Virus record (IMG/VR): IMGVR_UViG_2663762996_000010
Span: 1 to 34,239 of that record
Direction: 5' to 3' (one strand)
Source of the DNA: a virus
Taxonomy: Duplodnaviria; Heunggongvirae; Uroviricota; Caudoviricetes
Length of the DNA: 34,239 bases
Position 1 is the first letter of the stretch; each line of letters begins with the position of its first letter. The position numbers were made by a program. Shown piece by piece: positions 15,901 through 18,900 of the stretch.

Positions 15901-18900
15901 GACGTATACCAAAAGCAAAACGTTTAAAACCGAAAATGGTGCCCGTCGCTGGCTGGAAAGAAACTCAGGTGAGTGATATGGATTTCGACACAATCATGGA
16001 AAAGGCTTACGAAGAATACTTCGATGGTCTTGCCGAAGGCGAAGAAACTCTCAGCTTCAACGAATTTAAACAGGCGCTTTCCAGTTCGGCAAAATCTAAC
16101 GGCTGATAAGCGAAACAGCACCGCGAGGAATCAGTATGCAGAAACGAGAACCCGTCATCATCGCGCCAGACTATACCGATGATGAACTTTATGAGTGGAT
16201 GCGCCAGAAAATTAATGCAGTGCAGGATCTGAAATGGGCCAATGAAGCCAGGACTAAGCAGGCTGAAAATCTGTCCGCTCTGGAGCAGGATATCACCAGG
16301 CTGGAAAAAGCAGCGGCATTAAGCATTGCCAGAATGGTTACATACCCGCGTTAATAGCTAACCAACGAAGCTAAGGTTGGTAATTAAGGAGTTCTCCACG
16401 GGTCAGGTGGAGTGCGTGCGCCGGACACGGGTGAACATCCGGCACTGACAGTTTACTGAAAGGATATGTCCCTGAAAAGTCAGGGCATAAAGCGAAAGCG
16501 CACGGCGAAATTGGTCTCTCTGTACGGTGTCGTTAAATTTAGTTCGACCGTGCGCTTCCGGTTGTGGCACTCCGCGAAATGGCGCGGCGGTAAGTATGGC
16601 GGGGTTATTCCTTCCTCCGTTGAGGACACCGGGTTGTCAGGTTGACCATACGCTTAAGTGACAACTCCGCTGCAACGCCCTCTGTTATCAATTTTCTGGT
16701 GACGTTTGGCGGTATCAGTTTTACTCCGTGACTGCTCTGCCGCCCTTTTTAAAGTGAATTTTGTGATGTGGTGAATGCGGCTGAGCGCACGCGGAACAGT
16801 TAAAACCAAAAACAGTGTTATGGGTGGATTCTCTGTATCCGGCGTTAATTGTTAACTGGTTAACGTCACCTGGAGGCACCAGGCACCGCATCACAAAATT
16901 CATTGTTGAGGACGCGATAATGGAAACGTTATTACCAAACGTTAATACGTCTGAAGGTTGTTTTGATATTGGTGTTCTGCTCAGTAACCGGGAGTTTACG
17001 GAAGATGCCATTAAGATGAGAAAATATGAACCTTATCTTCTCAATGATAATTCCATACTTTCCAGAATTGCCCTTCTTGAACTTGGTATTATCGGAGAAC
17101 AGCAGTGACTTCAGCATTTGCACTGGTGATGACCGTTTTTCTTATAACGGGTGAGCCACAAAATGTGATTACCGGAATTTATGACAGTAAGTCATCCTGC
17201 ATTCAGGTAAGGGACGAACAAAAAATCCCCGGTGAATGCCTCCCGTTAAAAAAAGTATCGCTGAACCTGAATAACGAAATACCGGCTGGATAACCCGCCA
17301 GNAGAATGAGTATTATTGCGGATTTTCTTAACCCGTACTATACACATAGGGGCAATGATAAAAGGTGGCAAAAATGAATGTTTCCAGTAGAACTGTAGTA
17401 CTGATAAATGTCTTTGCTGCTGTTGGTTTGTTTACTCTTATCTCTATGAGATTTGGCTGGTTTATTTGATGGGTAATGACTCCAACTTATTGATAGTGTT
17501 TTATGTTCAGATAATGCCCGATGACTTTGTCATGCAGCTCCACCGATTTTGAGAACGACAGCGACTTCCGTCCCAGCCGTGCCAGCCGTGCCAGGTGCTG
17601 CCTCAGATTCAGGTTATGCCGCTCAATTCGCTGCGTATATCGCTTGCTGATTACGTGCAGCTTTCCCTTCAGGCGGGATTCATACAGCGGCCAGCCATCC
17701 GTCATCCATATCACCACGTCAAAGGGTGACAGCAGGCTCATAAGACGCCCCAGCGTCGCCATAGTGCGTTCACCGAATACGTGCGCAACAACCGTCTTCC
17801 GGAGACTGTCATACGCGTAAAACAGCCAGCGCTGGCGCGATTTAGCCCCGACATAGCCCCACTGTTCGTCCATTTCCGCGCAGACGATGACGTCACTGCC
17901 CGGCTGTATGCGCGAGGTTACCGACTGCGGCCTGAGTTTTTTAAGTGACGTAAAATCGTGTTGAGGCCAACGCCCATAATGCGTGCAGTTGCCCGGCATC
18001 CAACGCCATTCATGGCCATATCAATGATTTTCTGGTGCGTACCGGGTTGAGAAGCGGTGTAAGTGAACTGCAGTTGCCATGTTTTACGGCAGTGAGAGCA
18101 GAGATAGCGCTGATGTCCGGCAGTGCTTTTGCCGTTACGCACCACCCCGTCAGTAGCTGAACAGGAGGGACAGCTGATAGAAACAGAAGCCACTGGAGCA
18201 CCTCAAAAACACCATCATACACTAAATCAGTAAGTTGGCAGCATCACCCAACCGTTTTATCAAAAATATAAGAGACAAATTCTTCTTTAGTCATATAGAT
18301 TTCCTTCTTGGTTATTCGGGATAAGAAGGATACCACCTCGCCTGACGTGGTTAAAAGCAGGCACACAACGCGAAATGACGCGGCGGTAAGTATGGCGGAG
18401 TTATTCCTTCCCCGTTGAGGACACCGGGTTGTCAGGTTGACCATACGCTTAAGTGACAACCACGCCACAACACTCCATGTTGATTGGTACCTTTGGCGGC
18501 ATCAGTTTCATTGCTGGCTGATGTCCGCCCTTTTTAAAGTGAATTTTGTGATGCGGTGAATGCGGCTCAGCGCACGCGGCACAGTTAAAAAGCGATTAGT
18601 TCCCCCGTATCGGGTGGTTATGGGTTTCCCTGTATCCGGCGTTAATTGTTAACTGGTTAACGTCACCTGGAGGCACCAGGCACCGCATCAACAAAGTTCA
18701 CTTCGGTGATGAAAGGAAAGAGAAAATGTTGAATGTAGCTATTGAAAACCAGAACGGGTGGAATTATAGTGCACCTGCACCTTATAAAACGGGTGCCGGG
18801 CGTGGAAACCCGAACGTTACTTGAGCGCATAGCCGCGCTGAAGCGGTTTTTTTATGCGTAATGCACAGCTCCATTCAAATTATGGTGGGATGTGCAGGGC

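Follow-up and report, generated by a model that had tools for sequence, protein, structure and literature searches.

Closest described systems

In the immI region of phages P1 and P7 (Rfam RF01695, RF03163), the c4 antisense RNA, the subject of work by Citron and Schuster in 1990, is said to control icd-ant by way of a1/b1 and a2/b2 sites. The mechanism of the isrK-orf45(STnc1160)-anrP locus of the Salmonella prophage Gifsy-1, which lies after antQ, has been published, and a form in which orf45 and anrP are fused is known from Shigella dysenteriae (Hershko-Shalev et al., 2016, PMC4825925). In such a locus IsrK is followed by orf45 or structured RNA and an antirepressor gene, and is complementary to the RNA downstream of it; the first orf45 AUG of Gifsy-1 is located at nt 107 of the transcript (PMC4825925).

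The sRNA DicF (RF00039) belongs to the dicBF operon of the Qin prophage, its 3′ end being set by an intrinsic terminator and its 5′ end by processing of the operon RNA (PMC9438474, PMC5069750). It is further characterized by a 5′ end processed by RNase E, by Hfq binding and by filamentation of cells that overexpress it. Complementarity of its loop or 3′ region to the ftsZ ribosome-binding site is the basis of division inhibition, and its 5′ seed pairs with xylR and pykA (PMC5069750). DicF has been treated in the literature as one sequence, the copies compared being >99% identical (PMC5069750).

Organization of the IS1-bounded segment

The window is the whole stretch of DNA that was analysed, 34,239 nt of an IMG/VR record assigned to the Caudoviricetes. 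Quite probably the interval described here is an IS1-bounded remnant of a lambdoid early-left (dicBF-type) operon, which contains two RNA elements and lacks any new gene for a peptide. The principal value of the analysis is a correction, in that a plausible small "toxin" ORF corresponds to an already known sRNA and its promoter. The following features were assigned:

17472-18248, minus strand: IS1 copy of 777 bp with an internal 9-bp duplication (inverted repeats 17472-17494 and 18226-18248; InsA and InsB ORFs)
18249-18481, plus strand: remnant of a dicBF-type operon leader (repeat family D5 and alignment)
18482-18536, plus strand: type-2 DicF-like element (sub-threshold Rfam DicF score, fold and terminator scan), made up of the 5′ arm GAUUGGUACCUUU, the 13-bp terminator hairpin (18495-18529; loop UCAUUGCU) and the U-run (18531-18535)
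18537-18700, plus strand: conserved spacer common to all DicF modules (alignment columns 190-355)
18726-18824, plus strand: 32-codon ORF (MLNVAIENQ...) from the ORF list, ending in TGA at 18822-18824
18742-18770, plus strand: IsrK promoter, TTGAAA, 17-nt spacer, TATAGT (best promoter-like site in the region, 10/12 positions)
18777-18853, plus strand: IsrK sRNA (Rfam RF01394, model positions 1-77)
18861-19492, plus strand: open frame of orf45-anrP, a Rha-family antirepressor (Pfam Phage_pRha 111 bits, Phage_ASH 42.5 bits)
18878-18965, plus strand: C4-type antisense RNA (Rfam RF01695), the STnc1160/orf45 region of the Gifsy-1 locus
19005-19025, plus strand: b2 target site TCACTCGAG at 19005-19013, with the overlapping Shine-Dalgarno sequence and the antirepressor start (duplex prediction and covariation)
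19493-20270, minus strand: second IS1 copy, its far end hidden by a 20-nt N run (20251-20270)

The first IS1 copy cuts the early-left operon 5′ of type 2 and has removed the native promoter, and no promoter-like site was found on the plus strand at 18250-18741, between IS1 and the IsrK promoter region. With the operon promoter lost to IS1, type 2 in the window would most likely be silent or transcribed by read-through only. The second copy interrupts rha at 19492/19493. Positions 17472-20250 are 99.7% identical to IS1-fragment-IS1 composites in three closed 4.8-Mb chromosomes, an identity which indicates that the IS1-bounded fragment is real.

Besides type 2, the window holds three canonical DicF copies, at 16694, 20356 and 22240. 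The earlier note regarded the variant as an allele recombined into the same prophage, which is doubtful, since the segment is IS1-bounded and its neighbours are joined across N runs. On balance, the occurrence of one variant and three canonical modules side by side seems to reflect an assembly or scaffolding artefact or an IS1 rearrangement rather than recombined alleles: IS1 is present at every module junction, two of these ending in N runs of 20-21 nt, segments 2 and 3 have an identical rha/IS1 junction, and segments 3 and 4 are a mosaic of variant-type and canonical-type leader and flank. Furthermore, 0 complete E. coli genomes hold ≥80% of the 8-kb arrangement, and the closed chromosomes have one copy of the variant fragment, which adjoins ynfE. 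Rearrangement of this kind is, however, genuine in IS1-rich genomes, and canonical DicF followed by the IsrK cassette is a natural combination at the same spacing; it was encountered in six sampled loci, and copy 3 was accordingly rejected as proof of an assembly chimera.

The type-2 DicF-like element

An alignment of type 2 with the three canonical copies in the window showed that the ~80-nt leader, the stem base and U-run (GGCGG...CCGCCCTTTTT) and ~60 nt 3′ of the element are identical or nearly so in all four; within the leader remnant as a whole, the final ~95 nt are common to the canonical copies. The 5′ arm of type 2 differs from the canonical sequence by an 8-nt deletion and substitutions, and the loop and 3′ stem also differ. 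The divergent DicF-like element recognized in the earlier note is hence real at 18482-18536, with leader, stem base, U-tail and flank kept and 5′ arm and loop changed. Scoring with the Rfam DicF covariance model, which that note had proposed, gave a divided answer: the element obtained 38.8 bits (18482-18530), below the gathering score of 48 bits, yet with E = 8e-7 in an 801-nt stretch, while the canonical copies in the window obtained 76.7 bits.

The fold is that of a terminator. The 13-bp hairpin has a predicted energy of -21.0 kcal/mol (z = -3.75; 0/200 shuffles as stable) and is followed at the 3′ end by UUUUU, as expected of a Rho-independent terminator. The location is also that of DicF, in the early-left operon after a ydfC-like gene and before dicB, with the same conserved leader in front; in intact prophages dicB-ydfD lies downstream. 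Type 2 is about as large as DicF, and the GGCGG/CCGCC stem base, U-tail and 3′ flank are retained. Its stem, however, is longer and more stable than that of DicF, the 5′ arm, used by DicF for xylR and pykA, has the deletion and substitutions noted above, and the loop is without ACUCC, the anti-Shine-Dalgarno sequence through which DicF pairs with ftsZ. By analogy, its biogenesis is presumably the same as that of DicF. Type 2 would act as an intrinsic terminator ending a ydfABC-like transcript and would release an RNA of ~55 nt, a hairpin with a U-tail, of the Hfq-binding kind.

The spacer downstream of the element contains a partial STnc100 match (31.6 bits here and 42.3 bits in the intact locus L005; gathering score 47). 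The changeover between dicB-type and IsrK-type downstream sequence takes place directly after ...CACCGCATCA, at about 18695.

Predicted target pairing of type 2

Target prediction was based on cofold binding energies for four candidate mRNAs, with 40 mononucleotide-shuffled targets and 41 natural start regions for comparison. For canonical DicF the energies with ftsZ, xylR and pykA were -13.9, -15.4 and -9.7 kcal/mol, values equalled by 0/40, 0/40 and 2/40 shuffled targets, respectively. Subtype 2a gave -7.8, -7.3 and -5.2 kcal/mol, which is the level of shuffled targets (7/40, 7/40 and 31/40 reach the same energy), and ftsZ, ranked 2 among the 41 start regions for canonical DicF, was ranked 11 for type 2a. 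In these predictions ftsZ pairing of type 2 is at background, ACUCC being absent from its loop, and the 12-bp xylR pairing is gone. Type 2 would thus have lost both canonical seeds, the ftsZ anti-Shine-Dalgarno loop and the xylR/pykA 5′ arm.

Predicted pairing with the validated targets disappears with the changes in 5′ arm and loop, so that a different target set, or none, is plausible. The different target set suggested in the earlier note is consistent with the loss of predicted ftsZ, xylR and pykA pairing; an absence of targets is plausible as well, and the four candidate mRNAs yielded none. Among the 41 start regions ftsZ ranks 3rd for type 2c and 2nd for type 3, so that some residual ftsZ targeting may, according to the modelled energies, exist in the wider DicF family.

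Several comparisons were set aside. Full-length RNAduplex energies with ftsZ (-38.5 kcal/mol for canonical DicF, -36.5 kcal/mol for the variant) ignore intramolecular structure and had non-significant z-scores, and were replaced by cofold. The manX region used was uninformative, even canonical DicF having no clear predicted pairing with it. Two 7-nt matches, of AUUGGUA in the type-2 5′ arm to ftsZ UACCAAU (+20 to +26) and of GAUUUGU in type 2b to ftsZ ACAAAUC (-18 to -12), are at chance level, with an estimated chance expectation of ~0.1 and non-significant z-scores, and are not common to the subtypes.

Occurrence of type 2 and its Rac-type relative

Matches to the exact type-2 hairpin came from 33 IMG/VR contigs and, among 5426 complete E. 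coli genomes, from ~99-123; in these genomes the alleles are distributed as type 1 in 3973, type 3 in 1736 and type 2 in ~99. In E. coli chromosomes and IMG/VR prophages the type-2 hairpin is found upstream of dicB, ydfD and exonuclease genes, and E. coli SE11, P393-F10 and C5 are among the strains that have it in an intact operon. No exact match was obtained among GTDB species representatives, where a looser hairpin pattern recovered canonical, Salmonella and Rac-type hairpins only. The 38 type-2 loci analysed all contain the exact hairpin, which was the search pattern by which most were retrieved, so that the sameness of the loop among them reflects this selection. Judged from its sequence and recurrence, type 2 is a recurrent minor allele of the DicF family, as the earlier proposal of a second allelic type of the DicF locus anticipated; a limited literature search suggests that it is an undescribed allele, of uncertain activity.

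Three subtypes (2a, 2b and 2c) can be distinguished, the 5′ arms of which differ by mismatch or indel, unlike the nearly invariant 5′ seed of canonical DicF. The DicF locus has at least three common hairpin/seed types, and at least four in all. One of these, type 3, is situated between sieB and kilR in the Rac prophage and has the stem GGCGGCAUCAG...CUGAUGUCCGCC, identical to that of type 2, as well as the same variant of the downstream flank (GATGCGG). Similarly to type 2, it scores below the Rfam DicF threshold (39.1 bits) and lies directly upstream of a division-inhibitor gene (kilR), although its loop is different and longer, its 5′ arm and leader are different, and it is far commoner (1736 vs about 99 of 5426 genomes). 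The 8-mer CAUUGCUG occurs both in the loop of type 2 and in the 5′ arm of type 3. A group of dicF-related prophage sequences was reportedly described by Faubladier and Bouche in 1994.

These features raise the possibility, which we consider doubtful, that type 2 is a functional Hfq-dependent trans-acting sRNA that reuses the DicF processing leader and terminator scaffold and directs new seeds (5′ arm GAUUGGUACC, loop UUUCAUUGCUGG) to other host mRNAs, the DicF locus serving as a seed-swapping platform. The seeds change on a scaffold that is kept, four or more hairpin/seed types being known from this one locus, type 2 persists in about 2% of E. coli genomes in intact operon contexts, and a hairpin with a U-tail is typical of Hfq sRNAs; the loss of the canonical target pairings would be expected under a changed target set, and the 8-mer found in both type 2 and type 3 points in the same direction. 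Opposed to this are the variation of the 5′ arm among the three type-2 subtypes where the canonical seed hardly varies, the failure of cofold with the four candidate mRNAs to yield a target, a hairpin more stable than that of DicF which sequesters most of the element, and the lack of a promoter for the element in the window. The fuller proposition is unlikely when all its parts are taken jointly, namely that the DicF position is a modular sRNA platform with one leader, one terminator/Hfq scaffold and swappable seeds, the alleles being type 1 (ftsZ, xylR, pykA), the Rac-type type 3, rare type 2 and one or more further types, with type 2 active on a host target set of its own and associated preferentially with an IsrK-C4 antirepressor cassette.

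Whichever applies, several hairpin/seed types exist at the DicF locus, all of them without annotation, and one complete E. coli genome in three has the Rac type. Activity of the non-canonical types would mean that prophage sRNAs extend further into host regulation than has been assumed; should these types serve as terminators only, canonical DicF would be a terminator that acquired a seed.

The IsrK, C4 RNA and antirepressor cassette

Downstream of the spacer, IsrK is matched over the full length of its Rfam model with 61.4 bits (gathering score 50). It comprises two 5′ hairpins, a variable linker with a b1 site GTTACTTGAG (18816-18825) and a Rho-independent terminator, which the terminator scan placed at 18831-18848 with a T-run. 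IsrK thus has a promoter and a terminator of its own, the -10 hexamer ending 6 nt 5′ of its start; in at least eight unrelated classes of upstream sequence a -35/-10 pair is located at the same distance from GCACC. A c4-a1b1 match at 18764-18816 is weak (24.8 bits).

The C4 RNA scores 76.7 bits (gathering score 45) and has a predicted fold of -44 kcal/mol (z = -5.0), with the loop b′ = CTCGAGTGA at 18922-18930. Duplex prediction placed this loop on 18999-19041, where b2 is a perfect 9-nt complement of it and overlaps the Shine-Dalgarno sequence GAGGA (19011-19015), 8 nt 5′ of the antirepressor ATG (19023-19025). The loop/b2 pair covaries across >20 specificity types, and the covariation is three-way, extending to b1 in the IsrK linker as well as to b′ in the C4 loop and b2 at the ribosome-binding site. 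IsrK is accordingly followed by an RNA to which its linker is related through covariation with the C4 loop, and by a Phage_pRha frame, as at the Gifsy-1 locus. The loop is complementary to the ribosome-binding site of the controlled gene, as in a C4 module of the P1 type, but the controlled gene is not intact, the Rha ORF being cut by IS1 at 19492/19493.

By analogy, the cassette would constitute an IsrK-C4-antirepressor switch of the Gifsy-1 or P1 immI kind; the pairings and covariation were computed here, and the direction of regulation is taken from the Gifsy-1 literature and from P1. The C4 loop would pair with b2 on the antirepressor ribosome-binding site (19005-19015), leaving the gene silent, and IsrK, by means of its b1 look-alike (18816-25), would in trans either compete for C4 pairing or refold the read-through mRNA, so that orf45-anrP is translated. 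Covariation among IsrK linker, C4 loop and ribosome-binding site provides a clean specificity code, open to experiment, by which antirepressors would be controlled in different prophages.

The likeness to Gifsy-1 includes an IsrK with its own promoter and terminator in both, then structured RNA/orf45 and a Rha-type antirepressor gene, complementarity between IsrK and the RNA that follows it, and the same position of the orf45 AUG in the transcript, the window ATG (18882-18884) corresponding to nt 106-108 of the IsrK transcript. The window cassette differs in its location in the early-left operon after DicF, where the Gifsy-1 locus follows antQ, in the IS1 truncation of its antirepressor, in a promoter of a different sequence class, and in the in-frame fusion of orf45 to anrP, as in S. 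dysenteriae (PMC4825925). With P1/P7 immI the cassette has in common a C4 RNA at gathering level, a decoy-like b1 upstream, a b2 downstream that is located at the ribosome-binding site of the regulated gene, and covarying loop and target sequences that set specificity. It differs from immI in that IsrK, an sRNA with a promoter and a terminator of its own, contains the upstream sites, in that the regulated gene encodes a Rha-family protein rather than Ant, and in that the c4-a1b1 model reaches only the low score given above.

The 32-codon ORF

The earlier note had described an unrelated 32-aa ORF with its own terminator. Both are present, although the terminator is that of IsrK and the ORF consists of the IsrK promoter and the 5′ two-thirds of IsrK. 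The finding is therefore mostly ordinary, given that the ORF coincides with an sRNA already known and with its promoter. The ORF overlaps both the sigma-70 promoter at 18742-18770 and the IsrK RNA, and its last codons are the C4-binding site b1, which covaries with the C4 loop. It represents the 5′ end of a long open frame annotated by PGAP as Rha protein (the PGAP Rha CDS of L005, 283 aa, begins at the same ATG), and in 33/36 relatives this ATG reads at least 210 codons on into Rha. The ORF is only 32 codons long because of a CGA-to-TGA change, a relative having CGA at the position of the stop. This single C-to-T change, within b1, creates the TGA, turns a G-C pair with C4 into G-U, and interrupts the long frame.

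A further suggestion was that the locus encodes a different toxic peptide. That the variant sRNA is partnered with a new gene for a 32-residue toxic or regulatory peptide and its terminator, in the place of dicB, is very improbable. In its favour are an ATG with a conserved purine-rich, Shine-Dalgarno-like stretch upstream, a terminator downstream, and eight NCBI contigs that carry the ORF as a called gene; a protein-cluster look-up returned unnamed entries and one 453-aa cluster representative. A small toxic peptide would be conserved in length and sequence and either hydrophobic or recognizable, whereas the stop is absent in 33/36 relatives, no Pfam match was obtained for the 32-aa sequence, and the sequence is by inspection hydrophilic, with no hydrophobic or membrane segment. 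Moreover, a promoter and an IsrK match of gathering level overlap the ORF, the sequence upstream of IsrK is unrelated in other IsrK lineages, the terminal codons covary as an RNA pairing site, and intact relatives have dicB after the cassette.

The frame, open in nearly all relatives, allows another interpretation, in which ATG 18726 is a genuine start on early-left read-through transcripts, ribosomes in the relatives run through IsrK and C4 to yield an N-terminally extended Rha that bypasses C4 control, and the window carries a nonsense allele of this extension. The frame is open into Rha in those 33 relatives despite several b1/b′/b2 specificities, the ATG is preceded at 8-10 nt by a Shine-Dalgarno-like AAGG, the 283-aa form is annotated by PGAP, and the ATG sits where canonical modules have the dicB ribosome-binding site. 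However, the relatives are closely related and may simply have inherited the open frame, chance avoidance of stops over the variable sites is only marginally unlikely (~0.05, an estimate), and the two most similar promoter classes differ mostly by non-synonymous substitutions. In Gifsy-1, the upstream region is non-coding and translation begins at orf45 (PMC4825925). We regard an extended Rha as improbable and retain the assignment of the region to IsrK; the 283-aa "Rha family" RefSeq proteins probably have their start placed too far upstream, across IsrK and C4.

Placement of the cassette relative to dicB

The replacement of dicB proposed in the earlier note was not borne out. In intact relatives the IsrK-C4-rha cassette is located between dicF and dicB; the order Rha then dicB, seen in L005, L015 and L034, implies that the cassette was inserted and did not replace dicB. 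The absence of dicB here is explained by IS1, which truncated the cassette at 19492/19493 and removed what followed.

The idea that the variant is paired with a different downstream unit holds in part. Among the type-2 loci, dicB follows directly after the hairpin in 19 (including L001-L004) and the cassette in 12, so that the cassette is present in 12/31 informative type-2 loci vs 0/80 informative canonical loci of one sample, a statistical link. Canonical DicF is nevertheless followed by the same cassette at 20356 in the window and in six sampled IMG/VR loci; the cassette is enriched after type 2 but is not exclusive to it.

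RNA families in the variant region

The window was scanned with Rfam at gathering thresholds, and the variant region then with a permissive threshold. At gathering thresholds no DicF was reported in 18478-18860, and a second IsrK and C4 pair was found at 20642 and 20743. The features relevant here are as follows.

16694, 20356 and 22240: three canonical DicF copies (Rfam, 76.7 bits each)
18482-18530: DicF-like element, full-length sub-threshold match (Rfam permissive, 38.8 bits, gathering score 48, E = 8e-7)
18542-18695: STnc100, partial match (Rfam permissive, 31.6 bits)
18764-18816: "a1, b1 targets of C4" model, weak match (Rfam permissive, 24.8 bits)
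18777-18853: IsrK, RF01394 (Rfam, 61.4 bits, gathering score 50)
18878-18965: C4 antisense RNA, RF01695 (Rfam, 76.7 bits, gathering score 45)
18861-19514: ORF matching Phage_pRha (Pfam, 111 bits)

The spacer conserved downstream of every DicF type coincides with the partial STnc100 match, which reaches 42.3 bits in the comparison locus L005 (2571-2721) against a gathering score of 47; in Salmonella, the candidate sRNA STnc100 probably corresponds to the homologous stretch after DicF in a prophage early operon.

A recurrent minor allele of DicF

Alignment of the four DicF-containing modules, one variant and three canonical, revealed a near base-for-base match in the leader (~80 nt), stem base (GGCGG...CCGCC), T-run and downstream flank (~60 nt), with differences in the loop, the 3′ stem and the 5′ single-stranded arm, the last carrying an 8-nt deletion and substitutions. 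The predicted fold of the variant is a continuous hairpin of 13 bp containing one bulge (-21.0 kcal/mol, z = -3.75, 0/200 shuffles equally stable), against -15.9 kcal/mol for canonical DicF, and this stable hairpin was also detected by a terminator scan. Alignment and fold thus bear out the earlier note's description of an RNA that keeps the DicF terminator and leader and is altered in its 5′ and central parts; the Rfam DicF model recognizes the variant along its full length but below the gathering score and far below the canonical copies. No promoter-like site was found on the + strand between the end of the upstream IS1 (18248) and 18742, leaving the window's element without a promoter. A minus-strand ORF of 74 aa overlapping the leader (18244-18468) is cut by IS1 and has no Pfam match; its equivalents are annotated as hypothetical genes in loci L002-L005, from several E. 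coli genomes.

This variant, type 2 to the canonical type 1, was matched in 123 of 5426 complete E. coli genomes using an 80-nt query (99 at ≥80% coverage), where the annotation holds no feature except hypothetical proteins under a few matches, and its exact 35-nt hairpin is present in 33 IMG/VR contigs. Three subtypes of the 5′ arm exist, GAUUGGUACCUUU (2a, the window), GAUUUGUACCUUU and GAUUACCUUUU. A looser hairpin pattern detected further types in the same position, namely canonical type 1, a Salmonella form with the ACUCC loop retained (60.6 bits against DicF), type 3 and rarer forms. Type 3 (hairpin GGCGGCAUCAGUUUUUUUCUUGAAGUUCGGCUGAUGUCCGCC, 5′ arm ...CAUUGCUGUGUGUAGUCCU; 39.1 bits against Rfam DicF, sub-threshold) occupies the interval between sieB and kilR in the Rac prophage, as in E. 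coli ER1709 (L290, 2501-2593), and was also seen in locus L174 (3762-3809); it is without RefSeq annotation and is the Rac-prophage counterpart of DicF. Its stem and downstream flank are exactly those of the window allele, whereas its loop is longer and its 5′ arm is different, such that the window allele joins a leader of the Qin type to a stem of the Rac type. Type 1 occurs in 3973 of the 5426 genomes, the much commoner type 3 in 1736 and type 2 in ~99. These counts, and the other hairpin types in the same position, make the window's element a minor but recurrent allele within a family of DicF-like terminator elements rather than a one-off, and the proposal of a second allelic type is upheld.

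The type-2 loop (18508-18519) and the type-3 5′ arm (L174, ~3745-3760) have an 8-mer, CAUUGCUG, in common, which could point to a shared seed or to past recombination; in other type-3 subtypes it is replaced by CACUGCUG, and one IMG/VR locus joins a type-3 5′ arm with a type-2-like loop (GGCGGCATCAGTTTTATTGCTGGCTGATGCCCGCC). The Rac-type E. coli element also appears on contigs of metagenome-assembled genomes labeled 'Proteobacteria bacterium' (L170) and 'Candidatus Nanosynbacter sp.' (L172), most likely through bin contamination.

Predicted targets of the DicF types

DicF uses its 3′ or loop part to pair with the ribosome-binding site of ftsZ, and its 5′ end to pair with xylR and pykA (PMC5069750). 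Binding was estimated as the cofold energy minus both self-folds, which allows for unfolding of both partners.

Predicted binding to known DicF targets by cofolding (kcal/mol; shuffled targets equal or better in parentheses)
ftsZ: canonical DicF -13.9 (0/40); type 2a -7.8 (7/40)
xylR: canonical DicF -15.4 (0/40); type 2a -7.3 (7/40)
pykA: canonical DicF -9.7 (2/40); type 2a -5.2 (31/40)

Against a natural background of 41 start regions from the K-12 62-112 kb interval, a crude target test ranked ftsZ 2nd for both canonical DicF and type 3, 3rd for type 2c and 11th for type 2a. The window's element has lost the perfect 12-bp xylR 5′-seed pairing, and the anti-Shine-Dalgarno ACUCC is absent from the type-2 loop. 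These predictions support the view that type 2 would not be a functional equivalent of DicF; predicted pairing with the known targets is weakened in type 2a, and a different target set, as suggested earlier, or none is plausible. The window's DicF-like part belongs to a known family, as an allele that lacks annotation, scores below threshold, has changed seeds and may or may not be active.

The IsrK-C4-antirepressor cassette

IsrK, C4 and a Rha/AnrP antirepressor gene form a cassette downstream. The IsrK linker GTTACTTGAG (18816-25; b1) is complementary, two G-U pairs being allowed, to the second C4 loop CTCGAGTGA (18922-30; b′), itself the perfect complement of TCACTCGAG (19005-13; b2), which overlaps GAGGA, the Shine-Dalgarno sequence for the antirepressor start at 19023. 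Across the window sites and about 70 distinct loci (L005-L161), linker, loop and ribosome-binding-site element covary three ways in >20 sequence types (for example, TCACCAAAG / CTTTGGTGA / TCACCAAAGA and GCAAAAGG / CCTTTTGC / GCAAAAGG). This covariation looks like a specificity (heteroimmunity) code, and it implies that IsrK would be a separately transcribed a1/b1 decoy of the C4 system. Phage P1 immI is controlled by an a1b1 / C4 / a2b2 mechanism, to which the b1/b′/b2 arrangement corresponds. The C4 motif has been listed previously (PMC2864571).

The layout is that of the Gifsy-1 isrK-orf45(STnc1160)-anrP locus: IsrK, with a promoter and terminator of its own, is followed by a structured RNA that overlaps orf45 and then by a Rha-type antirepressor. 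In Gifsy-1, the read-through mRNA is translationally silent until IsrK acts on it in trans, which allows translation of orf45 and, through coupling, of anrP; the Salmonella transcript has the first AUG of orf45 at position 107, and an orf45-anrP fusion was noted for S. dysenteriae (PMC4825925). The window has an AUG at transcript positions 106-108 (18882-4), in frame with Rha. This part of the window is already known biology. Pfam PF10554 (Ash protein family) matches 18873-19052, residues 5-64 of ORF 18861-19514, where the coding sequence is the C4 RNA gene with its flanks, and the family may be largely the translation of a conserved RNA gene.

The 32-aa ORF

The ORF at 18726-18824, present in the ORF listing, had been taken for a separate small gene with its own terminator. 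Four observations show that it is not an independent gene. Firstly, the region's best promoter-like site (TTGAAA-17-TATAGT, 18742-18770) is inside it, the -10 hexamer ending 6 nt before the IsrK match. Among 121 IsrK-pattern matches from IMG/VR and the sampled loci there are at least eight unrelated upstream sequence classes, each with a -35/-10 pair equidistant from the GCACC start, hence the conserved feature upstream of IsrK is a promoter and not codons. Secondly, the ORF overlaps IsrK, whose terminator is the one ascribed to it. Thirdly, in 33 of 36 loci the frame from the same ATG does not stop after 32 codons and runs through IsrK, terminator and C4 into the Rha gene; a RefSeq 283-aa "Rha family phage regulatory protein" of strain 08-00022 starts at this ATG, and the stop is TGA in the window vs CGA in a near-identical relative. 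Fourthly, the final codons are the pairing site b1, where the stop-creating C-to-T change turns a G-C pair with C4 into G-U. No Pfam family matches the peptide, which by inspection has no hydrophobic stretch; eight NCBI contigs carry the ORF as a called, unnamed gene.

The annotated start of L005 2751-3602 (WP_040090509.1) and of equivalent ~283-aa RefSeq 'Rha family phage regulatory protein' entries is upstream of the IsrK promoter, so that their predicted N-terminal ~100 residues are translated promoter, IsrK, terminator and C4; translation probably begins in reality at the orf45 AUG or at the ATG that follows b2. The correction of the 32-aa ORF is among the most useful by-products of the analysis, as are the view of the DicF locus as having three types and the clear C4 covariation code.

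Placement of dicB and reliability of the module order

The ORF does not replace dicB, as had been supposed. Strain 08-00022 has the order type-2 hairpin, Rha, dicB, DUF1482 and exonuclease, and dicB is also downstream of the cassette in loci L015 and L034; the window's post-Rha sequence was lost because IS1 interrupts the Rha gene at 19492/19493. Among 38 type-2 hairpin loci, dicB follows directly (~185 nt downstream) in 19 and the cassette in 12, seven being too short or unclear, and the module alignment places the switch between dicB-type and cassette-type sequence just after ...CACCGCATCA. Nor is the cassette specific to the variant, as it also follows the canonical DicF at 20356; of the loci in the IsrK-based sample, six have type 1 ahead of the cassette, three have type 2, one has type 3 and eleven have no recognizable hairpin. 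In the hairpin-based sample it is enriched after type 2 (12/31 informative loci vs 0/80 informative canonical loci), probably owing to shared descent.

Two IS1 copies bound the segment 18249-19492. At 99.7% identity, the composite 17472-20250 matches composites in three closed chromosomes of ~4.8 Mb, where it is present as a single copy between a prophage immunity region and ynfE. In the window, runs of 20 and 21 N (20251-20270, 22116-22136) terminate the junctions with the following two modules, exactly at IS1 termini. The rha/IS1 junction is identical in segments 2 and 3, segments 3 and 4 (20271-21357; from 22137 on) each mix variant-type with canonical-type leader sequence in a mosaic, and the 8-kb arrangement is absent from the complete E. 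coli genomes, none of which contains 80% or more of it. Scaffolding error or an IS1 rearrangement may therefore have brought the variant and canonical modules side by side; their order and number may be a product of assembly, and the arrangement should not be read as recombination into the same prophage. A single N is present at 17302. Elsewhere in the window are a sok match (hok/sok-type antitoxin RNA; 111.7 bits, 10726-10900, - strand) and five tRNA genes (listed spans 6839-7145, 26749-26835 and 27827-27899).
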